From positions 62,001 to 95,975 of the forward strand of contig MEDY01000068.1 in NCBI GenBank assembly GCA_001724265.1: DNA of 33,975 nt. Reading direction: 5' to 3'. The position numbers and the translations under genes are program-made. Under the pieces are notes generated by a model. The model saw only the letters and a program-made list of their open reading frames with translations, was not told the origin of the DNA and did not search any database. Every line of letters begins with the position of its first letter. The first letter of the stretch is position 1. Source of the DNA: Rhizaria sp. SCN 62-66. Its lineage: Eukaryota. Positions 1 to 29,541 of the stretch are shown here, piece after piece.

Positions 1-3000
1 AGACAGGTTGGCGGTAGGCACAAAGGACATGCGCGGCCCAGGGCGAGGCCTTGTGGGAAGCAATGCCAGAGGTGCCAAAGTCGCAGTACCACTGAAGAGA
101 AAGCGGTTGAACTCTGTCAACGCAGGCGTAATAGCACGTAGCGTTATCACTGCACCCGTCTGTGCGGCGAGCGCATCGCGGTAGCGCGAGTCCTGCTTGT
201 AATAAATGTTTGTCGCTGTAACGATGCAGAGGCTGTTCACCGCCACTGCCGTGTTGCTAAACTTGAGCACAAACTTGAATCCAAGTGCCTTTTGCATAGC
301 TCCATATGTTGCGTTCGTAAAGCCAAAAGGGAGCACATCAAACACAGGTGCTGTTTGAGTTACTACGGTCGCAGTGCCGCACTTCAGCGAGATCGTTGAC
401 GTAGATGAGAAATAAAGACGTGACTGCTCGTGCGCAACGCCTGTTAGTACAGTCATATTGGGGAAGATAGTGGAGAGCTCAGCGAACACAGTGCCCGTCT
501 TTGGGAGATATACTGCCGCTGTGGTGATAAACGTGGCCTTCATTGTAAACGCACGCCCGTATAACCCACCATGTGCAATAGGAGACAGCGAAAGAGTGAC
601 CGGCATCGGAACGGTAAAGTCAGTGCGCAGTGCCACAGCTACAATGCTCTTGGCAATTGCAGTCGTGGCCGCCGCAGTCCGGTTGTAGCAGATAGTCATG
701 GTGACAGTTGGCGGGTTGCTGAGCTTTGTTGTGTCGACGGAAACGTTGCGGCGAACCAGAACAAGGGACTTTTCAGCGGGCCAGCCCTTGTCAAATTGAA
801 TAAAAATCTCGCCAGTTGCAGTGACAACGCCGCTGGTGCCGATCTCTGTACTGGCGTAGGGCAACATTGTGCCGGGTGATGCGACGATAAGACCCAACGA
901 ATCCAGAAGATTAGCCCACGAAACTGTCATTACAAGGAAATAGTTGGGCGGGATCGGCATTGCGGGCGTGACTACAAAGCCCATGTCGAGAGGGGTGGCG
1001 GCGAGAGGACCAGGAGAGTCGCCAGCCTGTGGTGCCAGCGGGGAGACGCTCGGTAAGCCCCAGTTTGGCGAGACATACAGAACCTGCAGAAGAGCCGCTG
1101 CAACGGTGCCCACTCCGCTATCAATCGTCGGAAGCGATGCGGTTGCAGTATAAGCAGGTGATGGATGACCGAAGTACACGTTAGACTTGATTGAGTACGT
1201 ACTATTCGTAAAGCACTTGATGCCCGAGATAGTTAGGGACGAGAGCGACGTGTTCGCCAGGCGGAGCGCGAACGTGCTGGTGGGGACGTCCCATTCCCCA
1301 GGACGCAAATGTGTGTACGTCGCAAGCATCGTGTTATGCGCTGCACTGTCGGTGCTGAGCGCAGCCATATAAGGAAAGAAATGGCACTGCGGATCAAGAG
1401 TAATCTCAACCGTTGCCTCGCCAAGCATCCCAAGCGGAATGGCCGGGTACGCTGCTGTGAGAGTTGATGAAGACAGACCCGAAAATATGTGCGTAATTGT
1501 AGATCCAGAAATCGAGTATGTGGGCGTCGCTGACGTAGAAGCTGGCAATGTCGCCTCAAGCTTGTAGCGAGTAAGACCGCCAGCTGAGACGAGGTCCAAC
1601 TTGTAAGCCTCAGCTGCTGTGTTGCTAACAGGAAGAGTGAGCGTAATAGAAAGCACAGCACTGACATTCTTCAGACAATAATATTGGGAAGGACTGGCCA
1701 GGCTCAACTTCATTGAAAAAAAAGGACTCAGTGTCGTCCTGGTTAGAGTCTGGGCGCTAGTTCCACCTGCAAGCAATGGCGCCGTCAGTTCAAACGTGGC
1801 TAAGCTAAAGACAGTTGAAACAGCAGCCGTCCGCATTGAGGGTGGCAGTGTAAGTATCAAGTAGTCACCAGTGTTAATCATCACGTTGCCGCCCGCACAT
1901 AATGTTGCCGGCGCTGTAAGAGTATGCACTAAGGCGGTGGTTGTGGCAGTGGTGGCATAAGAAGGCACGCTGCCGCGAACTACGCCAAAATGTCCCGTAT
2001 ACAGCCGTTGATTCTTGTTGTTAAGTATCGCCATGAAAATCTCAGCGCGCTGCTCTGTTACTGTACCGAGTTCAGTGTTCTCTACAACAAGCGTCCATTG
2101 CGATCCTGCAAGCACACCGCACGCGGCCATAGGACAAGCAATGTCACGGAGCACGTCGGGTAGGGAGCTCTCAGTAGCAGTACAAACCAAGTTGCAACGA
2201 TTCGAGAAGGAGTCTTCGAGTGAGGCCTGCACAGTCATAGTGGGCGGAGTGGTTGCAATGAAGCGCACCGTGGCTGTTGAGCCCTGGAGCTTCACTTGCA
2301 GTGTCTGCGTTGTTGAGACGGCCGGCGTCCAGTAGGGTACGCTAATCACTGCCCGCAGCTGACCGTAGCTCTTACCAGCAAGGAGGACGTGACTAATACT
2401 TGTTGTTACAATGGGGTACGGCCCAGAAGCAAGAGCCGGAATGACCGCCATTGCGCGCAATGACGTGCCTGAGAGTAGTCGCAGCTCAATTTCTTGCTCA
2501 GCAACAAGGCGGGTGCAAGAGACTGTAACGCGCAGAGTAAATGCAGTAGTGCCAGCTGCGAGACAAGAGGATAAATCAACACTGGCCCCAGCAGTTGCAG
2601 GTGTGCACGGTGAACTCTGAGGTGCCGGCAGCAAACGAAGGGCACTATCAAGAGTGACATCTGCGGGCATGTCATGCGGCAATGCCTCGCGGGTGGTAAG
2701 AGCAAGTTCCGAACTGGCTGCGACGTCGGTGACCAAAGACCACGCCACATCGCAGGCCACTGTGTAACGGGCCGGGCCGACGGAGTGAGAGCACGAACTT
2801 GCTATAACGCGATGAGGTGAGTCTGTGAGCGTAATTTGCTTTGTCGCGTATGCAAAGGAAGCCGACACTGAAGTGGCAACAGAGCCGTAACCAACGTTCA
2901 TAAGCTTATGTAAGCCTTCCGTCATAGCAGCAGATGTAGTGCGACTTCCATCAAGCTCCACAACAACCGCAAGGCGATCAGTGGGGAGCAAAACGGTTAC

Positions 3001-6000
3001 ATGTCTCAGAAGCAACGTTACGCTAGTATTCACCATCGCCGCAACGTAGGGAAGTGTAATAATGCCTGCAACGCCCACGCTGGCAAACGCACTCGCAGTG
3101 CCTGTGCCCACGGTCACACTGTATTCTGCCAAGCTGTAGCTAATTGGATTGCGCGGCAGTGTGATGACCAGGTTCATGCTGAAGTAGCTCATAGTAACCT
3201 GCGTCGACAGGAACACAATGCTCATGGTCCGCTCATTGGTTCCCGATACTGCGATCGAAGCGCTGGTAATAATCAGCGGAGGCGCCGGCAGCTGTTGCGG
3301 CTGGAGCGCGTCGGGTAAGACAGCGATAGGTGCCTGCGTGTCAAAATACCTTGACGAGTCATCAGTAAGCGTGCTAACGGTGAGCAGCTGCAATGGATTG
3401 GAGGGCCCAGTGGCAAACGTGCGCTTGATTGGGAAGCGGTAGATGCAGGGGGCATTGCTTGTACACGGATTGGCCACAGGCCCAGCTTGATACGCATTTT
3501 CAAGAACAACAGTTGCCACATAGGTTGATGTCGGTTCAATGCGGATGGACCCAGCGACTCCTGTGCTGTACTTGCCAGCGAAATCGTAGGCGTAGTCACC
3601 GTCCACGTGGAGAACAAGCTCGACCGCAGTCACCGTCGGGGAGAAAAACCAGTCAAAGAACGAGACTTGAAGATGCAACGGCGCCGCAGGGTGCAAGTCT
3701 GTTGCCAGGGTCCGATCCACGGCAACTTGCAGCGGCGGGGGCGCATTGACCGTGTGAAGCGGGGCGCCTGTGGCCGATGTAGACCCGTACTCAAGCTTGA
3801 CAGTGACACAGCTCGCTGAAAAGTGTCCAGGGCTGTCAAACGTGGCGCCCTCCGCAGGGTCAAGCTGTAAGTGTGAGAAAGTAAACGCAAAAGGCTGCTT
3901 AGGATAGAAAGGGCCGCCACTGCATGTGACCGTGAGCATTGATGCAGTGACGCTTTTGAGTGTACAAGCCCATGTCCTTGCGAGGAACTCAGCGTTCACA
4001 AAGCTCGATTTGGTCGACGCGGGGCACGTTTTAGTGTTCGCACTCAGGAAGATAATAACGTCGACTGTCGCTGCGGTAATGACGTCAGTAAGAACAGTGT
4101 GGACATCAAGACTTGCGCGATGCAGGGTTGCAGTGGAGTCACGCGTTAGCGTGACACCGTACATAAACACAGTTGGCAACGGTATAGTCCCAATTTCAAC
4201 ATCATGAATCGGAGCCAATGCAGACGCTGGATCTGCAACGCTTGTCAGGGTAAAGCAGCTCTTTGGAACGAGCTCGGTGTTCCTAAAGGAGCTTTCATCG
4301 GCATGCTCCAGGAAGTATGCTGAAGAGATGCGGAAGCCAATGTACTTGGGCTGAGGTGCTGGCATACAAGAAGCTGGCACTGAGAGTGTCGCAAAGCCGC
4401 TGCTATAGCGATCAGTGCACGTGTCCGCATCTTGATTGAGAAGATTTACAGGTTGATCGCTAGTATAGATACCGCAGTTTGTGCCAAGGGCGAGTAAGTA
4501 CTCTTCGACTGGCGAGCGCAACGGGAATAGAAAGATGTGCATGTCCGCAGTCAAGTCCGTTGCAGCCCAGGAGTGTGACGCAAGTGCAATATGGTACGCA
4601 AAGGGCGGCACGCTTGGGTCCAGTGGGTTTGTCAGCGGCAGGCTGTGGAACGCATGCGCAACCTCCGACACGAATCCACCAAAGGTGTACGTGGCACCAA
4701 GGGTGAACGTGAAATCAGTGTTCATGAATGAACTCAGCTCATAAGGAACGCGGAACTTGGCCGTGAACGAAGTGAAGCGGAGTGCGGCCACGGTGCAGTC
4801 GGATATCTTACCGGCGACATTGCTTGCGCACGTCTCTGAAGTAACTGGCGCACCGACAAACTGCGTTGACAGAGCGTATGTATAGCTCGTCGTGAGAGAA
4901 GAAACAGCGCGGAAGAAAAAGATCTTGGCAAGGTACGTCTGGTCAGTCATAGCCAGCACAACCGGTGGCTCAGTGGCGTTCATAACCGATGCAGATACGA
5001 CGTTGGTGAGTTGGTGTGACACAACAACTGAGGCTGGGGAGCTCTCGATGGTATCATCATTGACCACAGTATTCTGCTGTGGGATAACGACAGCAGCGGC
5101 CTTCACACCGGTCATACCAGTGGACGTGGGGTATGTCTTAAAATAGTTGTGATAGTCTCCATGGGTTGTGCGCACAGGACCAAAGCGAATAACACGCGGA
5201 ACAAAACGGAGATTCGAAATAGCAGTGACAGCGTCACAGCTTGTGAATCGCAAAAGTGTTACGCTTGTAGCCGTAATGGTGCATGTTAGGGCCGTGTGGG
5301 ACGTTGTCGATGGCTTGATTGCGATTCCTGAGCTGAAAACAAGCGCCGGTGCAATATCAGCCTGCGCAGTAAAGTTGATCGTCCAATTAGCGGAAAACGC
5401 TTTGTGAGCGTAAATGACAACCTCCCAAGTGACCTCCACAGGCGCCGTTGCGTGCGTGGGGTCGGCCGGATTCACAGTCGAGACAAGGTTTGCAGCCACT
5501 GGGTACCACACAAAGTCTAAGTCGCGCGAGATGGCTTGGTTCAGGGCAACCGTGGACGTTCCAGCCTTGGCGACTGTGGCTGTGGTGCTGGTGACGTTAA
5601 AACATGTCACACTGTTGAATGGGTAGTAGTTCGCCGCAGTCACGTCGAACTGCACGGAGACCGAGCTGTACGTGTTAGAACGCTGTCCTGCGGTGAAATC
5701 AAGTGTGCCCGCGGCATCGTACACCGTGAGGCCCGAACACGCAGCAGTAAGAACAGATGTGTCAAAGCTGAACGTAACGTTGGTGGTCGGAGTTGAAGGA
5801 TAAACGTAGAGTAAGAGCGACAGCTTCAGATAGCGCACGGCGGCAGTCGTCGGGCCTGGGACCAAAACGCGGTCTGTTGAAACCCAATGAAAGTAGAATC
5901 CAGGCGTCGCCGCGATGCGCAAGGCAATGTCGGCCGCCAGAGCGGCCCCCACCGTGGGGTTAGACGGCGAGCGGAGAACGACAGCGGTGCGCATCAATAT

Positions 6001-9000
6001 ATACGGTTCGTTCGCGGTGACGCGCGAGGCGGTATTTGCGTAAGCCACAGTCATGCTCGCGACAATGCACGTGAGTGTTGTCGACACGCCCTGCGTGATT
6101 GTCTTGGCTGAAGTGAACGATATCTGCGTTGCAGTGCGGTTGCCATACAACACACAGTCGCCTGAGAGCGTCGCAGCGCTGAACACCAACGAGTCTGCCA
6201 CGGAGACAAACGACAACACGTCGGTCGTCAGCAAAGTCTCTGCAGAGATTATGGTGAACTTGCCGGAGACTGTCGTAACAACTTGGAGCGGGTTTGATGC
6301 CGGGGTGATGGCAAATGCAGTCGCAGTATAGGTGACGTTGATGTAAGGAATATAGCCAAGTGGAACGCCATGTAAAGCAGAGACAGTCGTTGGCGCGGCT
6401 GTGGTAAGACTAAAGCACGTGTTACTAAGCGAACTATTCGCATAAAAAGGTGAGTACGCAACGTCAGTGAAAGAGTAGCCTGTGGAAATCTTATAAGCCA
6501 AGTACTTGGGCTGCGGAGTCGGCATGCAGCTTGATGCCACTGAGACTGCTGTCATGGGAGTTGGAGCGCACAATGCGGCGAGATTCTGGTATGTCACGGC
6601 TTTGCCCAAGCCCTGGTACACACCACAGTCGCTGCGCACATCGAGCGTGCTCAGGTCAACAAACGACGTGAGCGGGAAAATATACAGTTGCAGAGTTGCG
6701 GTTAGATCGGTCCCAACCCACGCGAGATCGGTGAGCACAACGTGAAACGCATACGGGGCAGGAGCGCTATATGCGTAGTCAAGTAAGTCAGTGGTTAAAG
6801 CGTTCACAGTTGCACTGTTTGCGCCGCCGACTGAGTAGGTGTAAATCATATTAAAATTAAAGTCGGTCTTTGCGTACGACGACTTCTCGTAGTCAACGAC
6901 AAAGGTGGAGCTAAAGGAGACTGGCATTTTCACAGTGCCCGTCGCCTGACACGTGACGTTTCCGGCAGCCAGCGTGGGGCATGTGCCGGTCGTCGTGGGT
7001 AAATCCACATGCGCCATTGATGCACTGTACGAGTAGACAATCGTAGACGCTGTGATGGCTTTAAAGAAGAAAATCTTAAAGAGGTAGTTTTGACGTGTAA
7101 TCGCCGTGACAATGGGCGTTGTCGTCGCCGGGCTAACAACATTAGCGGAGACAACATCTTTAGTCCACAGCATTGGTACGACGTTTGGCAGCGAGTTTGC
7201 AATAAAAATACTCCCGTCTGTCACAGCCGAGTTCTGCTGCACAATGCCCGTTTTAATGCTGTGTGATGCGAGCACAGAAGCCGCTGGTGTATACGACTGA
7301 AACACGGTCATGTACGCAGCGTACGTTGCCCGCGTTGCGCCAAAACGCAAAATGCGAGGAGAAAACTTACCACTACCATTGCCAGCGTCACTGATCGTGT
7401 CGCAGCCAGAGAGCTGCAGCTGCATCGCGCTGACTGGCGCAATCGCACACAAAAGGGGCGAGTACTTCGTGGTGAGGGGCGTCTTTAGCACAAGCCCGGT
7501 GGCAAACACGAGCGTTGCCGCCATGGCCGACTGTGTCGCAAGGACAAATGCCCAATTTGACAGCGGCATGTGGGCGTAGATGACGACCTCCCAGTCAATG
7601 TCAACAGGCGCAGTGGCATGGGATGCGTCACGCGGGTTGACAGTGCTGGCGAGCTGCGCGGCCACTGGGTAGATTGCAAAATCAAAGGGCAGTGTTGTTG
7701 AAACATACGAAATAGGAATGTTCCCGGCGCGGGTGATAACACTGGTGTTTGAGCTGACGGAGAAACACGTCGCAGTGTCAATCGGATAATACACAAATGC
7801 ATCTGCGTCGAAGTTAAAGTAGATGCTAGCACTTGACACGGTCACGCGGTATGATGTTGTCAAAGCCGTGTTAAAACTCCCAGTGCCACCGGTGAGTGCA
7901 AGTCCAGGACATGCGGTTGCATTCAAAGTGATCGTATAGTTAAACGTTGCAGGAGCTGGATTGGACATGTACAGATACAAGCTTGCTTGGATCTGCAGCT
8001 TGCGCGCGGCCAGAGTGGTGGCGCGCACGAGAGAGCGACCGACGGCGCCGATATGCCAGAAGAACGGCGTTACACCTGATGGTCGCGCAACAATATCGGT
8101 ACTTGCGGGAACACCCACGGCCGGGTTCTCCGGTGTGCGCAGCAACAACGCGTTTGGTAACAAGGTGTACGGGTCTGTTGCCGTCACGCGAGCAGCGTCG
8201 TTGCTGTGCAAAATCAAGATGTTTGTAAGCACACACGTGGTGGTTGTGATTGCGTCAACAGTGGAAAAACTTGTTACTGTGAAACTGACCGCGGACTTGG
8301 TTGCTGCACTGCTAGCCGCACATTCACCAGCGACTGTTACACTGGCAAAGTCGAAACATGATGCAAAGCCGGAAACCAAATAGAACACGGCACTCGGCGC
8401 AAACACGTCGCTGCGCGTAATCGTAATTGTTGCGGCCACAGAAGTCATCGTTTGGGTGAAATCCGCGGCATAAGGCGCGATAGAAAGCGCATTTGCTGTG
8501 TAAGTAAAGGAAACAGCGGGAGGGTCACCAAACGGAACGTTGTTGGCAGAATCATAGTCGGTAGCCTCGCTGGTGAATGAGAAGCAGCTGCTGGGCAAGG
8601 TCTGCGTTGCATGGTACGGGTTCGTGCTGACTGAGGACAACGTGTACGCGCTTGCAAGGCGGAATGCAAAGGAAGTGGGCACATGCGGCGCGCAAGTCGA
8701 GTCAAGCGTAAACGTATCAAAGCTGCTGCTGTACGCTGTACAGGTAGACGGCCTATTGAAGAACGTCAACGGCGACCCATTGGTCCAGGTACCGCAGTTG
8801 GTGTCCAGGATCATATAGTGCGCGGCAATGGGCAGTTTGTGCGGGAAGAAGACAAGCAGCACGTCAGATGTAAAGCTGCTGCCGGTCCACGTCTTGGGAT
8901 TGCCAAGCACAACTGCGAAGCTAAACGGCGGCGCAGTGGGACTGAGCGGGCTATCGAGGGTTTGCGATGTTGCGCCCGATAGCGAAACACTTCCTTCCGT

Positions 9001-11004
9001 TGCTGTAGAAGTGTACGTATAGGTGAGCGTAAAGCTCCAGTCCGACGCCGCAAATGACTGCACCTCATAAGGAACCTGAAAGGCCACCAGCACAGACAGG
9101 AGCATCCGCGACGCCGCCGTCGGGGCGCACGTGAAGGTGCCGGCCAAAAGCACAGAGCACGTGGCGCTGGTTGAGGACGGAGTACCCGTGTGCGCAGCCG
9201 CTTTGCTGAACGCATAGATTGTCGTGACTGTAGACACGCGTTTGAAAAAGTACATCTTGAGGTAATAACCCTGCTCTGTCTCGGCGACCGCTGTTGGCGA
9301 GACTGAGTCGGGGCCAAACACCGTCGCCGTTGTGACAGTCTTGGTCCAGAGCACAGGCACGACCAATGGCAGCGAAGAGCCGTCGACAACAAAATTGTCC
9401 GTGATGTCGATGTTCTGCTGTTGCACGGACGGCAGTGTGTCGCCGTAAAGCATCAGCATCGCGACCTAGGAGTAGGTCGAGAAGAGCGCTTGATACATCG
9501 TGTACGTCATGCGTGATGCGCCAAAGCGGATAGCGCGCGGGGCAAACATACCAGATGCCACGGCATCCACCACGCCACACGACAAGAACAATAGCATGGT
9601 AGCGTTCGCGACCATGGGCGTGCAGGTGACGGAGGCATAGCCCGCTGTCTGCGTCGAGAGCACCGTGACCGGGCCGGAGCTGAAGTCAATGCGCGTGGTC
9701 AGCGGGGACAGCAGTGTGACGGAAAAGTTCCACCCGGCGGTCTGCGGAGAGTGGAGGTGCAGCGCGAGCTCAAAACCAACGTCGACGAGCGTGTTTCCCA
9801 GTGCTGCCTCGCTTGCGGCCGCCGCGGGGTCCGCGACCGCAGCTGCGACGGGGTAAAACGCGAAGTCAAAGGGTCGCGTAAAGGCCGTCAGCGCAACCGT
9901 GGCGGTGCCGGCGCGCGCAATAGAGCCCGTGGTGCTGGTCACGGTGAGACACGCGCCGACGGGAAACGGGTAGTACGCGGCGTTGGCGACGTTGAAAAGG
10001 ACCCGGAGCGGCGTGGACGCCTTGGTGACGCGGTACGGGGACGTGACCGATAGTGAGCGGGCGGGGGTTTCCACTGTCAGCCCCACACACGACAGCTGAG
10101 CAGTTACGGTCTGCTGAATCGCGGTGTTTGTGGGGAGAACTGCGTACACGTAGACGTCGAACGACACGCGCAGCTGCCGTGTTGCCTCGAGCGCGCCGCG
10201 GGTCACCACGCGGTCAACGGGCACGAAGTTGAACCAATACTGGGTAGCGTTGGCGGACCGCAGCGTAATGTTTCCGCTTGCAGTGACGCCCGCGTCGCCG
10301 CTGGGGAGCTGCACCTGGACCGCATCGGCCTTAAGCACGTACGGATCGCTTGTGTCCGCGCGGCCTGCGGCGTTGTCGAAGGGCACGGTGATGCCAGTGA
10401 CGACGCACGCAAGCAGCTCCTGCGCGCCGGCAGAGTACGCGCGCACTGTGCGGATTTGCAGCTGGCCGGCCGAGCGGGCGTAGAGCGTGCAGTCCTGGCC
10501 GGCGGCGATCGCAGCCTTGGTGAATGTGACTGACGTGAGCAAGGTCGATATTGTGATGATGCCCTCCGCAGGCACGTCGTCGCCGATCATGAGGTTGAAG
10601 CTTCCTGCAGCGGTCGAAACCGGCGCTTCAGGGCTTGAGGCTGATGCAGAGAGCACAAGTGAGGCCGGGGTGTAAGACCATGACGTGTTTGAGAGGACTG
10701 CATTCACTTTCATTACAATAGACGCGGTGGAGGATGGATGTAGCGAGGTGTCGCCTGAGACGACATCTGGAGCGGAGGTCGTTAGAGCAGACACAAAATT
10801 ATGCCCGTGTGTAGGAGTAAAAGGGCTATACGCGAGGTGCGCATTGGCAGACGGAACGGCTTCAGTGGTAGACCGCTGCAAGGAAGGAAAGCCGGGAGTC
10901 CGCGCTGCGACTGACACCAGATGAGGAGTCGTAAGGAGCGCGGGAAGCAGCGAAAAGAAGGGGATATACCACAAAATCCATATTAAGCAGCCACCACGGG
11001 ACAT
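1..11004 (-). CDS. Giant secreted/cell-surface Thr/Ala/Ser/Val-rich repeat protein (at least 3668 codons, 3' end outside window), with one in-frame TAG at codon 513
   Basis: The listed ORF 9466..11004 stops at TAG (9466-9468). The same frame continues VAMLMLYGDTLPSVQQQN and reads open to base 1 (...MSFVPTANLS) by manual translation. No closed ORF in this frame is listed below 9466, consistent with a frame running off the edge. The N-terminus is hydrophobic, and the internal repeats align across the TAG. Confidence 0.85.
4200..10600 (-). repeat. Three tandem, diverged ~720-aa (~2.17 kb) protein repeat units; boundaries approximate
   Basis: Recurring motifs: DPYVL/DPYTL/EPYIL (~10340, ~8170, ~6005); PFDFAFYPVAA/PFDFAIYPVAA/DLDFVWYPVAA; RAIRFG/RILRFG/RVIRFG (FG at 9520, 7339, 5179; spacings 2181 and 2160 nt); YYLKMYFF/YLFKIFFF/YLAKIFFF; SCFSFTS/TCFSLTT/SCFTLTS. 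Confidence 0.85.
10903..11004 (-). other. Putative N-terminal signal peptide or signal anchor of the giant protein
   Basis: MSRGGCLIWILWYIPFFSLLPALLTTPHLVSVAA has a basic residue, a hydrophobic core and a small-residue (VAA) end. Judged by eye only. Confidence 0.55.
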
Positions 11005-12830
11005 AGAAGTCGGGTTCGATTAATGTCAGACACTTTTGGAACTAAAGGACGCCCTTTAAGCGAGAAAATTCGTGTAGAAGAGTAAGGGGACGCTGCGTGG
11101 TTCTGTGCGGTAACGTCGAGTGAAGCGAGGATGAAGATAGAGGAATAAGAACAGGGCACACGGAAAATAAAAAGAACAATCCAAATAGACCTAATCCGTG
11201 TGAGTCTAGTATTTGCATTTAATAATCGCATTCTTTTGTTCAATGAAACACTGAACTTGGAGGAACTGAATGCGGCATCGCACATGGGCTGATCTCTCCG
11301 CGCTTTCAACAGGTTGTTATCAGGCTATAGGCAACACAACAAGAGTTGAGCGCCTGGAATATAACATATATTCAAACGCTAAACCACGCCATATTGCCAA
11401 ATTTGGACTGATGCAGGACTGAGTCCCATACAACGCTTCTATCTATGCTCAAGCGCGCGGTCGAGTCGAAGAGCGGCCAGTGGTATGTCGCTCCCCCACC
11501 AAGATGGCATTCAACACCCACACGAAGGATATCAAAAAATGGGAGATATAAATAGTATTCTACATGTCCATAATTACCACCGCAAAAAGTCTTGTTCTAC
11601 ACTGATCGACTAGTATCAAGATATTGAGCGAAAACATCTCGCCAAAGGAGCGACCAAAACGACCAAAATTTGGCAAGCTCAGCAGTGTACTGTTCAGTTT
11701 TTGGCCGCGTTGCGTCGTTCCTGCTCACAGTCACTTTTCCTCGCAAGGCTGATTCCGACCAAGGCACATACACACTAAGTGCTCGTCACAGGGGATATTA
11801 TTAAGCACCATGGTGGTGTGTTAAGTGCTTGTAATTATACGATTTCTATTTCTTTTCTTAAACTCATTGTTGTCACCTCTAACTCCTTCCCCCGCTGCAG
11901 CCGTGATACTTTTTTTGTAATATGAGATGAATAAGGAGTCGAAGATAACGCGAGCAGCGGATCGTAAAGCCCACATAAGTGTGCATACGCTATCCGTGAC
12001 GTTCGTGTGCGCACACCCAGAGCGCGTTGATTTAGTCTGTCTCGGCTGATGCCCCTGATTCAACTTGCTTCAGCAACTCACCGCTCCAAAGTGTGACTTG
12101 CGGATTCCGTCCTATGACAAGGATTACGTGTACGCTACCAGCAGCCAAGCAAATCCCTTCAAAATCAGCACAAGGATCAGCCGGAATCGTTGCCCTTCAG
12201 CAACAAACACTCGGTATTGGGCGCGCCTCCGTTATGGTGTGCGCGCGCCTGGGAAGCCACAATGTGAGGGTGTTACAGTAACCGAGTCAAAGAGGGACAG
12301 GACATCGTGCAACCGTGTCACAAAGCGATTATGTTATACCTACAAACACCATCTATCCTAATTCGAGACGGGAGTTTAGCATGCCTTCCTGGTCTTGCAC
12401 AGAGGAGGGTGGGAGCGAAAGATGGCAGTCCATGCGCTCGAGAGTGAACTGTCTCCAAGAAATCGGCGACTTAATAGCATGAACCACGATTTCCGAGCGT
12501 ATTATTTAAGATACAACTACTACTTTATGTTTTAATTCTAAAGATCATGCCTTTTTCAGCAATGACGTTCGGTTTCTCGAGCTTATATCTTCGCAAAATC
12601 GGCGACACCCATCTGGCCGCCACTTGCTGCTGTCAACCCGCCTCGTCGCGCCATGTCATCATCATCTCCCCAGCTCGACATGATCGTCAAACCTTTTTGC
12701 ATTTGTGTGCAATAGTCATTCCTCATTAATTGCATTTTGTCTTTCAAATTATATTCTCCCAATTCTCTCTCTTAGCCCGCACAGACCCACCCCAGCCAGC
12801 CTCACTCCGCAGCGAGACCCCCGCCTGCCG
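11005..12830. promoter_or_regulatory. Divergent intergenic region, presumed promoters and 5' UTRs of genes 1 and 2
   Basis: Lower GC, no convincing ORF, located between two head-to-head start codons. No specific element was identified. Confidence 0.4.
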
Positions 12831-15800
12831 ATGTCGCAGCACCACGGGCCCGCCACACAGCAAATCCACGACTGGTCACAAGCCGGCACTGGAGGATTAG
12901 GTTCCAGCTATTCCAGCTTTATCAGCGTTGCCAACTACGGTATCAACCCTGCAGCTACCCCCAACGCAAGCGCCGTCGCCGCTAGTGCTAGTGCTGCGCG
13001 TCAATCTGCTACGGCCGTCGGTCCAGTCTACGCTGCTGCCTCTGACTTTGCTGCGGCCCATGATGACACCCAAAGCACCAGCAGTGAGCTTTCGGTGACC
13101 GCCGATGCCTTTGACGTCGCCATTCCGTCGTCTTTCGCGTGCGACAGCGCTGATGTTGCTGATCGTGGCAACAAGAACGACAAAGACGACGCTCCCGGTG
13201 CTGCCGCCACACTCTCTGCTCCTGCTGTTAGGGCTGCTACCGGCGCAGGCTCTGCCGGTGTGGGCGACGGGCAGAGCAATGGCTTGCCTCCCCAGTCTGA
13301 GTCTAAGTCGGGCATAGCGTCCGCTGCGCCCCAGTCGCTGCTCTTTGGCTCGCTGTCCGCGAGTATAACTTCCGCTTCTGCTGCTGGCGACACCGGCTCT
13401 GTAACGGCCTCGGCGGGCACCTCTTTGCCCGCCGCCGCTGCGGCCAACGCCGCTTTGGCCACGGACGCGGACGCCTTGCTGCCGCCCACGGTCACTCGTG
13501 GCGACTCTGCCACCAGTGGCAACGGCTCTGCAGAGTACTGTCCTGCTACGCCGGCTGCTGCTGAAGCTGAGACTGAGGCTGAATCGGAGGCTGTTCAGGA
13601 AAGTCTTGCTGCTGATTTCGAGTCCTCGTTACTGGCTGCTGCTTCCGTTGCCGCTTCCCCGGCCCCCGGCTCGACCGCAGCCTCAGTGCCGCACTACAAC
13701 TCGCTGTTACCGTCGTCCGTGCCAGCCATCATCGCATCCGCCGCGGTCGCCGCCGCGACGCCCAACAGCAAGGGCGACAACGCCCTAGCGTACGCTGGAT
13801 CGATTGCTTTTGCGGTTCCCAAGTCCCACAAGAACAGCAACAATAGTCGCAACAACGCCAGAGTGACAGCGGATGACCGTCTGGCCTCGCAATCCCAGTC
13901 TCAGCAATCTCAAGTGCCCGCAACTCAGATCAACGCCGCCAGCTCGCAGCAGACTCAGTTTCCCGCCACGCAGCTCCTGCAGACGCAAGTCATCGGCAGC
14001 TACGGCGGCGGCGGCGGCGGCGACAATCAGGCCCATGACAGCCTGTACGGTGCGACACAGGTCATCTCCACCCACGATCACGGTCATGGTCACGTTTATC
14101 TGACGGGCCAGTCGGGGGGCGGCGTGAGCCTGGGCTCGACGCCGCTGCCGGCGACGCAGCTCGTGGTTCCGCAGCCGCTGCTGTCGAGCAGCTTCGACGA
14201 CGAGTACGGGGAAAGTGCGATGCTCAACAGGGGGTCGTATGAGTTTCTCCCGCTGCCGTACCCCGACAGGCGCGGCGGGGATAAGCCGAAGCGTTCGCAG
14301 AAACAGCAACAGAACCAGCATCAGCAGGAGTCTGTGAATGAGCAACAACAACATCAGCTACAGCAGGAGCAGATGCGCCACGACGATGATGTTGATGAGG
14401 ACGACGAACAAAAGCAGTGTGGTGACGACAATTGCGTTTCCAGTCACGTTGTTCGCAATACTCCGGGCAATGGTGATGACGACTTGGATGACAGGTTGGC
14501 TGTTATCACCGGTACTGCTTGTAACTCTCATTCGACGAATAATGTTCGCACTAGCGCAATTAAGGCGCCTTCAGTCGCTCTACCCGCTGTACCAAGCAAT
14601 GACGTCACTCTCCCCGCTGTGCCAAGCAACGACTCTGACATCAGCAACGTCGCAGGCGCTGACTCTGGCAAGAACAACAACAGTTTGAGCAGCGCTAAGG
14701 TGCGCGTCGTCGATGCACGCACTGCAGCTGCGATGGTTGCAGCACAGCCCGTCGTAGTGCTCAACGTCACTGCGGCTGCGGCCGCTGCGACTGCGGCCGA
14801 GGCGGGAAACCAGGACAACGACGGCGACGACGACGACGACGACGCCGGTAGCCACCGTGAACAAGGTGAGTACATGTCGTCACTGATGCAAGACGAGTCT
14901 CTCGCGCGCAACCGCGACGCGAGCAGCGCTCTGAACAGCCCCAACAGCCCGCCCCTAGCGTGTGCGACTACGCCGTCCGTGCCGCCGACGACTGCGGCCA
15001 AGGCCGCAAGCGCGGCGCGGACGGCTGTGGCGCCGGTGAACGGGAGTCGCGAGAGCACTGGCAATGCCACGACCGCTGCGACGGCGACTCCAACGGCGAG
15101 TCAGGATGACGAGTTGCTGGGTGTCAGGCGGCTTGACTTTTCCGAAGTGGAGCCCTCGCAGCAGCAGCCGATTGTCGAGAGGCGGCTTGACTTTCTGACA
15201 GGCTCCGAAATTGAATCATCGCAGCCTGGCAACACCAATAAAAGTGAAGACGCAGGCATCGGAAACGACGACCCCCATGCTGGCTGCAACGAACAAGAGC
15301 ATGAACAGAAGGACAATGGCTGCAACGCGACTGTTACTTCTGCTGCGAGTACATACAGCGTCGACACTGCGGTGACCGCCGCGACCGCGCGCAGCCACCT
15401 TCACGACCACATTATGAGCCATCTCCCTCTCAGCCACGCATCTGCTGCGTCTGACCACGCGTCGTCACCTGTGCGCTCTCGCTCGCGGCCACGGTCGCGG
15501 TCGCGATCACTTACTCGCAGCAGCGCCACGGCTGGCGCTAACGCGAACGGAAACGGTGGCACCAACAGTGCGCAGGGTGGCATGCCTGATGTCGTTGATA
15601 TGAGTGACAGTCCGACTGTGCCAAAGCGGCATAGCTTCGTCTCGGCGGTAAACCCAGCCCACGAGGACGACATGAGCACGGAGACAAGCGCGCATGCGAC
15701 GGAGGCGGACGCTATCTTCATTGATGACTCTCAACCAACGCCTAACGACGCCAAGACCAGTCGCGCTAACGAGGAGAGCAGTGGTAACACGAACGCCGCG

Positions 15801-17621
15801 ATTGCAAGCAATGCTGGCGAGAGTGTCGGAAGCGCCGACGCCAAGGGCGACTATGTGGAGGCTGAGTTGGAAGAGGACGACGACAATGGGCTCAGCTCTC
15901 AATACGACCGGGACGCCAATGCTAACGACGACCGTACAATCAAGAACTCGAATCCGCTTCCAAAACACACCTCAGCTCCGCTTGGGTTCAAGACGCAACA
16001 GCAACAGCAGGAGCTCCGTTCGAACGACGCCGTGGACATGCACGCTGAGGGCGTGGAACTATCACAACGATCAAGCATTCAGTGGTCACAGACGCAGACT
16101 AAGTCGCAGTTGCCGCTGACGAACGACTCGTACTAGGAAGAGTGCCTCAATATCTCCCTCACGCCTTCACAACACCACCCGCAACAGCAGCAGCAGCAGC
16201 AACTGAAGGTCAACAATAACAACACTCTCACTGACGCTGGCAAGACTAGGACTGCTGATGTTGTCGACGGCACTCGTAGCGGTCGTGCTAAGTCACGCAC
16301 TGACTTGAAAGTGAACGCGCTCGATCTAAGTGCCTCCTCAGGTCCCTGTACCTCTAATGCTGCCAACTCCGCAAGTGACCCCTTTGAGATCGACATCGAG
16401 TTGTTGCCGCTTGCAGCGCGTCTTGAGGCGCGCAAGAACTTTGCGAAGAAGCAAGCGCTTGCGCAACAGCAGCAGCAGACTGTTGAGGCGGCTACTTTAG
16501 TTGATCTTGCAAGTGCTGTTCTCGGTGACGACCACGATCGCAACGGCGAGGATTTGGTGGTCGACACCGCCCAAGGCTTAGTTCACAGCACCAAGAACAA
16601 TGCGCCTAAGAAGGCGGTCGAGCTGATGTCCAGTCCGAAGACGAGGGGCCGTAACCGGCTGCGCGCAGTGTCGCCGCCTGGCACTGTGTTCACCGCGGAT
16701 TTTGCCGCCTGCAGCCATGGCGGGGGCGATAGTGACGCGGACAGTGCCAACGAGAGCTTTGGCGCCTTGCTGGCGAAGGCGAATGCCAAGTCTAAAGCAA
16801 CTACGACCACTGCTACCGCTGCTGACTTTTCGGCTGTCACGGCTGCTAACGCCGCTGCCGCTGCTGCCACTGCTGCTGCCGCCTCTGCTGCTGTTGTTAG
16901 TACCCCCTTAGATGACGAGTCTGTCACTCCCGCTGACCGCCGCACCCGCGCACGGGCCCTCGCTAACGCGAATCATAGTCGTCTCACTCTCGCTGATGCC
17001 GACAGCACTGACGTGACACAGCTGCACCGAGACTCCCGCTCCCCCGCTGTGTTCATCGCTTCCCCTCCGAAAGGCCGCGCTTCTAAGGCTACTTCACCCG
17101 CGCCAAACGGGGGCAACGTGGACGCAACCCCGCCAACGCACGGCAAGAAAAAGGGCAATTATATCGCGAACGGGAACGCCCGCACCTCAACTACGAACGC
17201 CAACAGCCCGATCACCGCTACCGTGGTACCTGCTGCGCTGGCGTACTCTTCTCCGTTCCTCACTCGCAACCAACGGCGCAACCAGAACGCTAATAACGGC
17301 AACGATGCTGCTGTTGCAGGGGCAGCAGCAGCAGCGGCGGCAGCGGCAGCGGCTCCGGCGACGGCGACGGTGACTGAGACATCCAGCAATTTAACGCCCG
17401 TCTCTATCCGGGGTCAAGACACAGTCAGCAGTGCCGTCACGATCTCCAGCACGAGCCCCAGCGCAAGTTCGAGCACGCAGCACTCGAGTGGCAGTCGTAT
17501 GGCGCACTCTCAGCGGCAGCCGCCGCTGCAGTCTCAGCCTCGATCAAACAGCTCCCGGTCACGCCGCGCCCCCGGCCCGGTGCCTCTGCTCCTATCTCAA
17601 CAACAGCCTGAACAGCAACAT

Positions 17622-17654
<33 letters not shown>

Positions 17655-20600
17655 CAACAGCAAGTGTTGTCGCGACAAGCTCTCACGGTCACTGCCAGCA
17701 ATAACGTCAGCCATGCCTTAGTCCCGGCGTCCCCCGCCGCCACCGCCACCACAGTCACCGTCCACTCCGGCAGCGCCAGCCCCTCGAGCGCCTTCGTCAG
17801 CCTCGGCAACTCGGTCGCCGTCGTGAGCCACGTTGTGCTGCAGATGACGACGGACACGCGCAGTGCGCTGGAGGCCGCGCTCGTGAGCAGCGACGCGGAG
17901 GTGTTCAGGCGGATCTTTCTTGAGTCATTTCCGACGTTTTCGCCGGCGGCGACGCGGCAGCAGCTACACCAGCTGCAGTCGCCGCCGCAGTCGCCGCTGA
18001 AGCTTCAGCATCAGCCGCAACAGCTACAGAGTCTAGTTGTCGCCACAAATGCCGAAGCTGCAATTTCTAGCAAAAATACCGGTGATGCTGACGAGCTTTC
18101 TGATCATAGTGATTACGGCAACGAAACTGGTCGAGTGAGCTCTAAGTCAAACAAGTCCAAGTCCAAGTCCACTGCTTCCAACAAGAACCAGAGCCAGACC
18201 AATGCTCGAGCCCAAGCTATTGCGAGCACGAGGCAGACGGCTGCGCGCTCTCGCGTCGCCAGTGCTGTCGCCGCTGTTAATCCTACTGGTGGCGATGATG
18301 CAGACAGTGAAGAGCGCAGCGCCCGCGAGCGCGGCCGGAACAGGAAACGCGCTGCTCCTGACTCTAACGACGCAGCTTCTAGCTCCGCATCTGCCTCAGT
18401 CTTAGCTGCGGCTCGCGGCGCCAAGACCAGTCGCAGCAACGGCAATAACAGCTCTCGCAGCAGCAGTCGCATGGCTCGCAATAACATGTCCGCCAATTAT
18501 GACTTCGACGACAATGATGGTGAAGAGACTGAGACTGGGAGTATCACAGTCAAATCAGAGCTCATGATCCAGTCAGAGCGTGACTCGCACTCAGCTACGT
18601 ACAGCCGCTTAAGCGAACTCTCAGCTTACGGTCAGGTGGACACAGCTCCAACAACTCTCTTCTCGCTGACGGCGACAACACAGAACCATAACGCGCAGAG
18701 CAGCAGCAACAATCGATCCGATGACGACAGTGACGGTGAGAGTGCCTGTGGCGCGAGCGCGGTTAGCAGTAGCGACACACGCGCTTCCAAGAAGGCGCTA
18801 TCCGTGCAGACTGCGTCGGCGTCCTTTTTAACATCAGGTATCAATAACAATGACGTTGTGCGAAACGCCGGTGCCTTTCCTGCTGCTACTCTGCCTGTTA
18901 TGCTTCTGCTTGACGTCACTCGTGGTGCCAATGCGAACACCAGCGCCAGCACAAGTGTTAGCGCTGCAAGTGCCCGCGTTCAGTCGCGCTCGAAGACCAC
19001 CGCAGCTGCTGCGACCGCGGCTGCAGCGGCCGCGACTCTGACAGCGGCTGCTGCCGATGCCGTTGGGATCGACACAAGCTCCGCGCTCGTCGACACTGCA
19101 CGGCCGGTGCGTGCAGCGCAGTGCGGTCTCGGCTCGTGGCTCCGCGTTGTATCGGTAGCGGCAACCCACGTGAACTCGAACACTCCTACGAACAAGAAGA
19201 AGACATGTTCTGACAGGAGTAGTGTTAGCGGTGAGAATGTCGCAAGTCCGGTTTTTAGCCCGCTAAGCACTCTGGAGCTGCCTAATGACTACAACGTCAA
19301 CATTCGTGGCATTCCGTTCACTTATCTCGCGGCAGAGGCGACTGACGTATCTATGTTCTCGACTGCGGCACTCTCTGGCCGCGAAATGTCGCCCTCTCGG
19401 GCACGCAACAACAACACCAATAACGCAGGCAGTAGTCCTACCACCAACTCTCATCCGGGCGTAACTTCCGGCAGTATTAGTGTTCCTTCAGACTCGTTCC
19501 GCTTGAACGTGATCTTGACCGGCGCAGATGAGGCGTGCGAGGCCCGCGTTGCGGCGTTGATCCCGCGCATTCCAGGCGCGCGCATGCTCACAGTCATGCC
19601 GAGCTATAGTCAAGCCGCGTACCTCACGCCGACCGCGAGTTCCGTACATTTGCTCCACTGCAAGGATGAGAACTCGACTGGTGTGGTAGCAGGACTCCTA
19701 GAGCAGCAACCTCTGCTGCCTAGCTCATCTATCAACGGCAACAATAACGCGTCTAAGCTCACACTGCAACAGCGCCAGCAACATCAACAGCAGAAACAGC
19801 AGCGTGTATGTGGTGAGATTTTCGTTGTTGTTACAGGCAGCCCAGCGCCCGCGCGCACGCTGAAGTACCTGTTCACGCTTTCCCGCGGCGTCCCCGCAGT
19901 CAAAGAGGCCTGGCTCTCCGCTTGCGTCAAGGCCGGAGCGCTGCTGCCGCTGACAGCCTACGCAGTTGCCGCGCCGACAGTCACCGGCGCGAACGCGAGC
20001 TCTGGCTCTGGCTCCGGCTCTGGGGCGGCTCTTGCGACTGCGACGGCGGCGGCGGCCGCGGCTGCGGGCGCCAGTGGTGCGCGTGGCCTGGCGAAGCGGC
20101 TTGGCGGCCTACTTCCGCTGCCGCTGGCGAAACGGCCGTTTTTCGGGCTGCACGCGTATCTGCAGGGCGGGCGCGCACTGCGCCGGGACTGGGCCGTACT
20201 CGTGGCGGAGATGGGCGCCGACGTTGTCAACGGCGACCTGAGCAGCGCCGCCAGGGCCAACGTCAACAGCGATTATACCGCAACACACTTCCCGTGTAGT
20301 GTTCATCACGACAGTCATGCGCCCGTTGGCGGCTCGAGCTCTGCCAGTGCAAGTGCCAGTGCCAGGGCTCACGGTGCATGTGCTCGGTGCCAGTCTCGTG
20401 CGAGCGAGTGTAGCGCGCGTACTGCCGCTGCGGTTGAGCTACTTGTGCTCGCAACGCTTGCACTTGCGCGAGCACACTCTGTTGATCACACTGGCGTTGC
20501 TACTGGGCGGGGCGATGCGAATACGAAGCGTAAGTCGGTCCAATTCCAACAGCAGCACCAGCTGCACGAGGGGTTGTTTGGCCTGTCTATCGATGACATG

Positions 20601-21713
20601 GCCAGTGGTGACTACACCGGCGCGTTTCTCTCCGTTAGTGCCGCGCTTGCAGCCGGCGGCCCAGATGCATTCTTCTCTTGCCAACCTTCAAGCGCAAGCT
20701 ACGCCTCGAGCAGCAGTACCAGTGCGAGTGCGCGTTCGAGCTCACCGGGCGGCTCCCCACGCCGGATCGCTGCCGCGGCCGCTGCCGCTGCCTCTGGCGC
20801 CGCTGTCTCTGGTGCTGCTGCTCGGTCTACGCCCGCTGCGCATTGCTGGTGCTTTCTTGTAGCTGCATCGAACAAGAGCAAGGCCCGCGGTAACAAGAGC
20901 GGCAGCAAGAATACAAGCCGTGGTGTCAACAACAGCAACGATGACCACGAGTGCGCGTGTGAGTGTGGTTGCAGCGCGAGCGAGGACGCGATTGAGCTCG
21001 GTGATGATAAAGCTGTGACGGTGACTCTGCAGCTCAATCAATCCGCCCCGCTGGTGACCGTGAGTGGCGCCGACATTGACGCGCATCGCAACCAGGTACA
21101 TTTGCTGCACTATCTGTGCACTCTCGACAGCAAGCTCACGCCGGAGAGTGTTCTTGCGTCCACCATTCTGCCGCCCGTCAATGCGCAGCATTACTAGCTG
21201 CAATCACGCGCCACCCTCAGCCACACCGCAGTGCCCGTGCTAGTGTCCTCGGTGTTATCAGCTCCCGCCGCCTCCCTCGAGTCAGAGCACCAACTCCTGC
21301 GTATCGCATGCTCCCCGCGGTCCCCGTTCGCCCGCACACACCGCGTCTTTGTGCTGCTGTTGCCCGACGCGCCGGCGAACCGGCTGCAGTTGTCGCTGCT
21401 GCGCGCGGCGCGGGAGGCGCGTGTGGCGTGCTACAGTGTGTCGTACGCGGCTGACTGCGCTGCCGCGGGGAAAGCGCTCGACGGACGCGATTACCCCTGG
21501 ACGCCCCCGTTACAACGGCTGCAACAACAGCAGCAGCAGCAACTGCATCAGCAGATGATGCTCAGTCAAATTGTTGACGGTGCATTCGGTGCCAACGCAA
21601 CACAAAATCAAGGGCTGCCACAACAGCAGAGCCGTGCACGGAGGCCTGCTCCTGTCGACAAGGGCGAGAGTGCCGTTCTAACGCAAGCGAAAGGTAAGCG
21701 CAAACTTGCGTAA
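12831..21713 (+). CDS. 53BP1/Crb2/Rad9-like DNA-damage checkpoint mediator (~2960 aa, tandem BRCT), with in-frame TAG at codons 1102 and 2789
   Basis: ORFs 12705..16136, 16305..21197 and 21231..21713 share one frame and are separated only by TAG at 16134-16136 and 21195-21197. The gaps are stop-free. First ATG is at 12831 and the end is TAA at 21711-21713. The N-terminus is disordered with a TQ/SQ cluster, and BRCT signatures lie near the C-terminus. Confidence 0.75.
17623..17662 (+). repeat. CAG/CAA trinucleotide tract (poly-Gln) in gene 2
   Basis: A run of cagcagcag...caacagcaacagcaa. Similar poly-Q, poly-A and poly-N tracts occur throughout genes 2 and 3. Confidence 0.9.
19498..19965 (+). 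other. BRCT domain 1, with a Q/N-rich insertion
   Basis: LNVILTG...VVVTGSPAPARTLKYLFTLSRGVPAVKEAWLSACVKAGALLPLTAY matches the RTxKY...G(I/V)PxV...W...C...Y pattern of phosphopeptide-binding first BRCT repeats (53BP1, BRCA1, MDC1). Confidence 0.85.
20133..21500 (+). other. BRCT domain 2, split by a ~370-aa low-complexity insertion that contains the second TAG
   Basis: The N-part RPFFGLHAYLQGGRALRRDWAVLVAEMGADVV (~20133-20228) and the C-part RVFVLLL...SLLRAAREARVACYSVSYAADCAAAGKALDGRDYPW (~21340-21500) resemble the two ends of the 53BP1-type second BRCT. Confidence 0.65.
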
Positions 21714-28027: not shown

Positions 28028-28282
28028 CTGCGAATGTCAGTCGCGGAAAACAATAAAAGTGAGGTTTACGAGAGTATATGCATGCGCGTTAAATAAAAGC
28101 CAGTGTCTGATATAAAATACGCATAACTATGATTAAATACTACACTTTTCTGGAGTAAAAATCACATTCTTAGATAAATATGTCTCTTAAGAAAAGCCAG
28201 CAAAGAGCGACCACGTGTTCTTTGACATAAAATTTCGGTCAAAGCTATGTTGAAGAACGTATTATTGGTCAGTAAAACGTAC
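28028..28282 (-). other. Spliceosomal intron 3 (255 nt)
   Basis: GTACGT...CTGACATTCGCAG with a branch-point-like CTGAC next to the AG. AT-rich, phase-2 join LAR-HQAAD. Confidence 0.8.
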
Positions 28283-28707: not shown

Positions 28708-28864
28708 CTAAAAAAAGTAGTAAGATATGTCCACCAGATGTTAGTATCAAGACATGAATTTTGCATAAATAACAAATATCACAACAATACATAGTATATA
28801 ATAGTTTTAAGTGCAATGAATAGTATTAACATCGCCAAGCGTTTAGTGTAAAAAGATCGCGTAC
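28708..28864 (-). other. Spliceosomal intron 2 (157 nt)
   Basis: GTACGC...TTTTTAG, AT-rich, phase-0 join GSK-GGVFQW. Confidence 0.8.
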
Positions 28865-29345
28865 CTTTGAGCCATTGCGCACGTGGGGCGTCGTGACGCG
28901 GCTGCCCGGTGACTCGGCGACACCAAACGCGGCCCCCATGCCACTGTTAGCCGCACTGACGGACACCGACGTCGATCGCCCGCCCTTGCCAGAGGTGCCG
29001 TCGGCGCCGCTCGCCTGCTGCTGCTGCAGTTGCTGCTGCTGGAACTGTTGCTGGACCGGATCTAAGTACAAAGTGTGTTGTTGCGCGGCCATCGTCGCCG
29101 GTGAGGGCATGATAACGGCGTCCTGACTGGCTGCCATCGCCGCTGCCGCCGAGGCAGACTCGGCTGTGACGTTTAAGTACCCCCTTAAAAGCCGTCCGGC
29201 GAGCGCAGCGGCCTGGTCGTCGCCTTTCCCGCTGTATTCGAGCTCCAGCGCAGCCTGGACTTCGCGCGGGTCGCGCACAAACACAGTGTCTAGGGACACG
29301 TCGGCCAGGGTAACAGGCGCAGTGCGCACGTTCAGACCGTACGGA
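28865..29345 (-). CDS. Gene 3, exon 2
   Basis: Frame of ORF 28826..29329. Acceptor tttttgactcag|T, donor AAG|gtacgc. Confidence 0.8.
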
Positions 29346-29541
29346 CTGAGTCAAAAAGAGGGAAGCAATAAAAAAAAAAAAGAATCGGGACATTCACGTA
29401 AGTCAAGATATAGGCACAATCAAGACGAATCTCAAAAATACAATAAAAATAGCTATATTACAACAAATAAAATACAAATAATAATTGTTATTTCAATTAA
29501 TAACTACATCAGAGAGATATGTTTGTTTTAGTGAAACCTAC
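29346..29541 (-). other. Spliceosomal intron 1 (196 nt)
   Basis: GTAGGT...GACTCAG, very AT-rich, phase-2 join EAR-PYGLNVRT. Confidence 0.8.

Follow-up and report, generated by a model that had tools for sequence, protein, structure and literature searches.

Can a codon that still ends genes also be passed inside long reading frames? This question is raised by a stretch of DNA from Rhizaria sp. SCN 62-66 (GenBank assembly GCA_001724265.1, contig MEDY01000068.1, positions 62,001 to 95,975 of the forward strand), a window of 33,975 nucleotides from whose first letter all coordinates below are counted. Two very long genes of the window, here called P0001 and P0002, are interrupted in frame by three TAG codons, and a first-pass annotation had proposed that UAG may be a sense codon in this organism while UAA terminates. 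Our analysis contradicts a clean change of the genetic code in its strict form, and partly supports the view that something lets, or very recently let, reading frames run past TAG.

Three in-frame TAGs in two open genes

On the minus strand, two stop-to-stop open reading frames (ORFs), 1..9465 and 9466..11019, meet at a single TAG (TAG1, 9466..9468), and on the plus strand three ORFs, 12684..16136, 16137..21197 and 21198..21713, meet at two others (TAG2, 16134..16136, and TAG3, 21195..21197). When TAG was translated as X, the minus frame gave 3,673 residues with one X, and the plus frame gave 3,009 residues with two X, followed by TAA. TAG1 lies in repeat unit A of P0001 at residue 518 of this translation (context TCC TAG GTC); TAG2 (TAC TAG GAA) and TAG3 (TAC TAG CTG) lie in P0002, the latter 171 codons ahead of its TAA. 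The ORFs and translations thus returned the same positions and codon contexts that had been reported for the three isolated TAGs in the first-pass annotation. With their ATGs at 11004 and 12831 taken as starts, P0001 and P0002 have 3,668 and 2,960 codons, respectively, and in these 6,628 codons there are three TAGs, no in-frame TAA, no TGA and no change of frame, so that the earlier statement of no internal TAA, TGA or frameshift holds over both genes.

Behind TAG1, TAG2 and TAG3 the frame stays open for 3,155, 1,686 and 171 codons, respectively. The G+C content at third codon positions (GC3) was 0.65 in the first 1,500 nt past TAG1, 0.64 between TAG2 and TAG3 and 0.69 past TAG3 (overall range downstream, 0.59–0.69), bearing out the coding-like sequence that had been noticed past each TAG; intergenic stretches showed values of 0.40–0.54 at all three codon positions and no periodicity. 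When the two genes were examined as possible pseudogenes, neither further lesions nor a lost downstream coding signature were seen in the 6,628 codons, and GC3 was kept; a very young lesion could still look like this. The sequence behind each TAG is coding now, or was until very recently.

Metagenomes of bioreactors, wastewater and activated sludge, from seven studies in all, contain the stretch. Logan contigs of four runs were compared with the window over positions 3000–22900; since these are contigs and not raw reads, minor alleles are invisible in them. The runs X2 and X3 are filed under different studies and years, and they were counted once because identical contig sets and depths make them not independent. 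X4 (2025, a separate study) differs from the window by 8 single-nucleotide polymorphisms (SNPs) in these 19.9 kb, none of which falls within a TAG. Among the listed pieces, TAG1 is spanned by an X4 contig only (8234–9867, without differences), TAG2 by an X2/X3 contig (14935–17305) and an X4 contig (14840–17305), and TAG3 by an X2/X3 contig (21084–22900, without differences), no listed X4 piece crossing TAG3. For the nine TAG bases, no alternative letter was reported in any spanning contig, and the TAGs persist in contigs of 2016/17 and 2025, over about ten years. In addition, P0124 (512 aa), which stops at TAG1, and P0139 (1,101 aa), which stops at TAG2, are ORF fragments recorded from 4 contigs each, the longest being 96,058 nt, and no read-through variant of either was present in their 90% clusters. 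An assembly or base-calling error of a single sample was rejected, since contigs from other samples keep the TAGs they cover; the worry about base calling that had accompanied the original claim can be set aside, the contigs of X2/X3 and X4 showing the same letters. The three in-frame TAGs are real, and they recur unchanged between samples and over the years.

The SNPs between samples number 10 outside a cluster at 10507–10645, too few for the ratio of nonsynonymous to synonymous substitution rates. Within that cluster, one X2/X3 contig shows 18 differences in 140 nt near its end; it probably comes from a related strain, a related species or a paralog of the N-terminal region of P0001 in the same samples. 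As for RNA, a polyA-RNA contig of run X5 (15909–16163) is colinear over TAG2 with the TAG unchanged; it reaches 27 nt past the TAG, below the 31-nt rule of the comparison, and may represent DNA carry-over. No listed RNA contig spans TAG1 or TAG3. An RNA contig was also found 200–450 nt past the TAA of P0002. Stretches without RNA cover (4 of 30 bins) are uninformative.

The two interrupted genes and their relatives

P0001 (1..11004, minus strand, its 3' end lying beyond the window) is the gene of a giant Thr/Ser/Ala-rich protein with a hydrophobic N-terminus, which we read as a putative signal peptide of a secreted protein. The protein contains three tandem repeats of about 720 aa each, units A (8095–10269), B (5929–8094) and C (3760–5928), all on the minus strand, which share 30–38% identity. 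No Pfam family was found for P0001, and its own family comprises 11 representative homologs in 1.84 billion proteins, all of them unnamed metagenome proteins; one relative, P0131, was found on 7 contigs. Residues that do not vary among the repeats, such as QQN, FF and the cysteines, are retained in unit A past TAG1. The ortholog P0125/P0135 of a related organism aligns with P0001 over 1,738 residues, every one of them past TAG1, at 61% identity and 74% positives and with 7 gap positions, indicating that the part downstream of TAG1 has been under protein-level constraint for most of the divergence. Reinitiation at an ATG 3 codons past TAG1 was considered and rejected, as its product would lack the N-terminal hydrophobic segment.

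The TAG1 column itself is spanned by the N-terminal ortholog P0138 (52% identity over 99% of the 835-aa query), which has Ser there (STNS-S-AVAVM in P0138 versus STYS-X-VAMLM in P0001). Units B and C show Pro/Thr at this column, and P, T, A, T, G, S, V, V, T and S are found across paralogs and homologs, the homologs being read by eye. Judged from these alignments, the column is variable and gives nothing for Gln. The earlier suggestion of Gln as the inserted residue is therefore unsupported, since the sole ortholog spanning a TAG column has Ser and the paralogs have small residues. P0138 seems to be one repeat unit short.

The ends of the ortholog ORFs were also compared with the window. P0125 and P0135, on two contigs of 61 and 18.9 kb, stop at one and the same residue, at which the window has CAG, and the ORF of P0138 ends where the window has GAG, an end that may be that of its contig. 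These stops could be TAG, the only stop one step from both CAG and GAG.

P0002 (12831..21713, plus strand, with its TAA at 21711–13) encodes a low-complexity protein of 2,960 codons. A segment at about 19785–19979 on the plus strand resembles a BRCT repeat of the Mdb1/MDC1/53BP1 type: a phmmer search of PDB with P0002 gave 7p0j_A (Mdb1) at E = 4.7e-5, MDC1 at 0.035 and 53BP1 at 0.22, while the Pfam BRCT matches (E 0.001–0.0085) stayed below the curated cut-off. Because this segment is most like Mdb1, MDC1 and 53BP1, P0002, with its very long regions of low complexity, probably acts as a DNA-damage mediator. We also read a candidate second BRCT in the 171 codons after TAG3, for which there was no Pfam match, the PDB search returned chance matches only and BLASTP against the BRCT segment gave nothing. 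AlphaFold2 predictions made without an alignment for the part behind TAG3 were too poor for a reading of the fold (predicted local distance difference test 37.3 for 703 aa and 40.5 for 111 aa). Among proteins of 1,654–5,266 aa, we found neither orthologs of the P0002 C-terminus nor homologs spanning the columns of TAG2 or TAG3.

TAG2 and TAG3 are both preceded by TAC (16131–16136 and 21192–21197), with Tyr making up about 39 of the 3,009 residues (about 1.3%, our count), and at TAG1 a TAC stands two codons upstream. The chance of two sites sharing any preceding codon is a few per cent, a figure that is post hoc. Over the whole window, TACTAG occurs 6 times, with 6.6 expected, and so shows no enrichment.

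Gene ends and the reading of UAG

According to the first-pass annotation, all visible gene ends, three in number, were TAA. We found five, of which four are TAA (21711, 23099, 24220 and 31687) and one is TAG (29538–40), that of gene g5 (29538–30686, minus strand). The end of g5 reads '...cgg TAG gtt tca cta aaa caa aca tat...', AT-rich non-coding sequence following directly. Since GC3 collapses immediately after this TAG (0.76 before it, about 1 in 14 codons after it) and the next in-frame stop, a TGA, comes 14 codons on, the TAG of g5 (29538..29540) is almost certainly a working terminator. The same codon is thus both internal (3) and terminal (1) on one contig. Of the original proposal that UAG is sense and UAA terminates, what survives is that the TAGs are genuine and that frames run, or recently ran, past them; its strict form is contradicted by g5.

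A complete reassignment, in which UAG would always be an amino acid and only UAA (and UGA) would terminate, could account for the TAA at four of five gene ends and for the absence of in-frame TAA and TGA, but g5 would then need a 14-codon AT-rich tail (GC3 about 1/14) starting exactly at its TAG. By our arithmetic, with three TAGs among 6,628 codons fewer than 1% of genes should carry one within their last 15 codons, and such usage is far under that of known cases, the rhizarian exLh having 384 in 71 genes. Because g5 stops at TAG, a complete reassignment of the exLh or Iotanema type is unlikely, and we rate it as quite improbable.

We tentatively favor a position-dependent or partial decoding of UAG at translation, with a confidence that falls somewhat short of even. 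The translation apparatus would pass UAG within long reading frames, hence the toleration of the codon there; a near-cognate or suppressor tRNA would decode it in competition with eRF1; and UAG at a true gene end would still terminate, so that its meaning would be dual, position-dependent or partial rather than cleanly reassigned. Passage of the internal TAGs by ribosomes is our inference, as is its mechanism. A dual meaning is suggested because all three interruptions (3/3) are TAG and nothing else is broken in two unrelated genes over 6,628 codons, and because there is no AT trough behind any TAG and GC3 remains 0.59–0.69. It is also suggested because unit A keeps its invariant residues past TAG1 together with the 61% identity to P0125, because the TAGs were stable from 2016/17 to 2025 while 8 other sites differ, and because both TAGs of P0002 follow TAC though Tyr is rare. 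Moreover, the ortholog ORFs end at positions aligned with CAG and GAG, and codons that are both sense and stop have precedents, for which reasons too a dual meaning was preferred.

Several observations weigh against such decoding. There are three sites only, all of them in fast-evolving or low-complexity genes, and no local context separates internal from terminating TAG, as a G at +4 is common to TAG1 (TAG GTC) and to the TAG of g5 (TAG GTT). A shared RNA structure was not found at the three TAGs (z = −2.64, 0.53 and −0.34 at TAG1, TAG2 and TAG3, and −1.63, 0.95 and −0.29 downstream of them, respectively). A 7-bp inverted repeat, CGACCTA-CTCC-TAGGTCG (9461–9479, minus strand; z = −2.64, 3 of 200 shuffles folding equally well), has TAG1 in its 3' arm, and no hairpin like it exists at TAG2 or TAG3. 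No tRNA of any kind was found in the 34 kb window. TAG1 aligns with the Ser of the ortholog, and a simple nonsense change of TCG to TAG would look identical. Finally, the family of P0001 decays in relatives: in 4 of the 13 homologs read (P0129, P0131, P0133 and P0137), the C-terminal tails resemble, on our reading, family sequence in a shifted frame, and these tails could represent frameshifted pseudogenes, assembly chimeras or something programmed.

The TAGs may instead be true premature stops that arose as young nonsense mutations: P0001, one of a surface-protein family, would be decaying, the MDC1-like P0002 would be dispensable or covered heterozygously, and the broken allele would be the one assembled. 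We regard this as a serious possibility, if not a probable one. Premature stops would agree with the normal termination of g5 by TAG, with the frameshift-like tails of P0129, P0131, P0133 and P0137, with the interruption of P0125 upstream, at a place where its near-identical strain P0135 is intact, and with the Ser at the TAG1 column, from which TCG could become TAG. CAG, GAG, TAC and TCG are abundant one-step neighbors of TAG in GC-rich genes, and as contigs drop minor alleles, a heterozygous intact allele is possible. On the other hand, the three lesions would all be TAG, with no indel, TAA or TGA in 6,628 codons. By our arithmetic, which assumes about 0.1 indel for every substitution and a stop from about 4% of substitutions, 9.4 kb of unconstrained sequence stays lesion-free only to about 0.2% divergence. 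The TAGs are, in addition, older than the split of strains differing at 8 sites in 19.9 kb, two of six genes would have to be broken within one 34 kb window, and in P0002 the rare codon TAC precedes each of the two TAGs.

Introns of the organism bear on two further explanations. Gene g4, whose exon 1 lies within the ORF 28826..29350, holds two GT..AG introns on the minus strand, so the organism is intron-poor but not intronless. Intron 1 (28708..28864, GC about 0.27–0.29) has the signals GTACGC...TACTAAC...TTTTTTTAG, and intron 2 (28028..28282, 255 nt, GC about 0.29–0.41) has GTACGT...CTGAC...CAG together with in-frame TGA and TAA; excision of the latter fuses ...NLLAR|HQAADAAR... in frame. 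In-frame stops are present in both, with GC of 0.27–0.36. We read the signals GTACGY, TACTAAC and CTGAC as fungal-like.

The TAGs might accordingly lie in unrecognized introns, or be the true ends of separate adjacent genes. One of the known introns is a multiple of three (255 nt), and candidate donor sites exist 86 nt upstream of TAG1 (GTATGT) and 102 nt upstream of TAG3 (GTACAT). However, GC is 0.52–0.67 around all TAGs as against 0.27–0.36 and several stops in the real introns, and the 86-nt candidate at TAG1 has a length not divisible by three and encodes the most conserved motif of the family (...PRAIRFG..TY...). Repeat homology is continuous across TAG1, and the RNA contig is colinear over TAG2. 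As for separate genes, the first ATG past TAG2 comes about 165 codons downstream, in coding-type sequence. On GC content, repeat homology, the colinear RNA contig and the distant ATG, both variants were rejected as very improbable.

Correction in the mRNA, for example adenosine-to-inosine editing of UAG to UGG (Trp), possibly in one life stage only, is in our view unlikely. Premature-stop editing in Sordariomycetes is marked by just such TAGs, with no other stops, in genes that are intact in all other respects, and both the fungal-like intron signals and the position of TAG1 within a 7-bp hairpin (z = −2.64) would fit it. Nevertheless, the sole polyA-RNA contig over TAG2 is unedited, though it may be carried-over DNA, and editing that is partial or confined to one stage would not show in contigs. 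There is no hairpin common to the three sites, and Trp is absent from the TAG1 column in orthologs and paralogs alike. Furthermore, the system is known from filamentous ascomycetes only, to which the organism may not belong.

The sole well-conserved gene of the window is g6 (31687..32625, minus strand), which encodes a lathosterol oxidase (FA_hydroxylase family) with 55–60% identity to animal enzymes and 60–76% to metagenome proteins; it ends in TAA, and its 312 codons contain no in-frame TAG. A scan of metagenome contigs with close lathosterol oxidases as the query returned a single locus, L001 (1–5304), an AT-rich contig of 5.3 kb from a different organism, on which a lathosterol oxidase 59% identical to g6 is accompanied by an Asn-rich, Cys-repeat membrane protein. 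A scan of metagenome contigs with the alignment of P0001 and P0125 gave no match in a collection that is without the window's own contig, and one viral-contig scan and two genome-contig scans revealed no further DNA of the organism. In the window, an Rfam scan found no family, and a tandem-repeat search found one 30-nt repeat (14574–14633).

If decoding of UAG is indeed partial, it is conceivable, though doubtful, that this uncultured organism and perhaps its relatives are in the 'ambiguous intermediate' stage of a stop-codon reassignment. UAG alone would then be both terminated and decoded, occurring about once per 2,000 codons in very long genes while it continued to close others. In the relatives, the ortholog ORFs end at CAG- and GAG-aligned positions, and the organism itself has fungal-like introns and an animal-like sterol desaturase. 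Stop-codon reassignments are normally discovered once they are complete, and an intermediate with low-frequency double reading has been mostly a matter of theory; UAG-only changes, moreover, form the rarest class among nuclear codes. If a free-living and repeatedly sampled eukaryote is in that intermediate state, the transition could be tested directly by examining its tRNAs and eRF1 and by ribosome profiling and proteomics. If, instead, the TAGs are young nonsense alleles, the finding is an ordinary one and serves mainly as a warning: in metagenome assemblies, long genes of low complexity can be mistaken for evidence of a change of code.

Comparison with known decoding and correction systems

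Reassignment of UAG alone has been described in the rhizarian exLh (UAG as Leu), in Iotanema spirale (UAG as Gln) and in some phyllopharyngean ciliates. In exLh, the 384 in-frame UAGs of the 71 genes stand mostly at conserved Leu columns, and the terminators are 56 UAA, 15 UGA and 0 UAG. The present case resembles these organisms in that only UAG appears in frame and UAA is the main terminator. It differs from them in that the 3 TAGs found here among 6,628 codons fall on variable columns and one gene has TAG as its terminator, whereas in those lineages in-frame UAG is frequent, placed at conserved Leu or Gln columns and never a terminator. In Amoeboaphelidium both UAA and UAG are reassigned, and a code of this kind is at odds with the four TAA terminators of the window.

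Premature-stop editing as found in Fusarium and Neurospora shares with our genes the isolated TAG, never TAA or TGA, in intact genes, with ancestral codons often one step from TAG. Fusarium graminearum has 71 pseudogenes with edited premature stops, all of them TAG, and TAA alleles are not editable. Our locus departs from this system in its single RNA contig, which is unedited, in the absence of Trp at the aligned column and in possibly not being that of an ascomycete.

Programmed readthrough, as in tobamoviruses and murine leukemia virus, is similar in that UAG is passed and the protein thereby extended. The tobamovirus signal is UAG-CAR-YYA, and that of murine leukemia virus is UAG followed by a pseudoknot. 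In contrast, the downstream codons here are GTC GCG at TAG1, GAA GAG at TAG2 and CTG CAA at TAG3, with no shared downstream structure; having neither downstream codons nor a structure in common, the three TAGs gave no match to known readthrough signals, which were therefore rejected as an explanation.

Contingent codons, which serve as stop or sense, have been described in Condylostoma and Parduczia, for UAR in Blastocrithidia and for UGA in Amoebophrya sp. ex K. veneficum. In those organisms two or three stop codons are affected, and a large proportion of the genes carries them in frame, whereas here UAG alone is concerned, and rarely. For ciliates, short 3' untranslated regions have been proposed as the positional cue that tells a stop from a sense codon; here an RNA contig lies 200–450 nt past the TAA of P0002. 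What our locus has in common with these organisms is that one codon is found both within reading frames and at a gene end, of which the internal ones may be translated.

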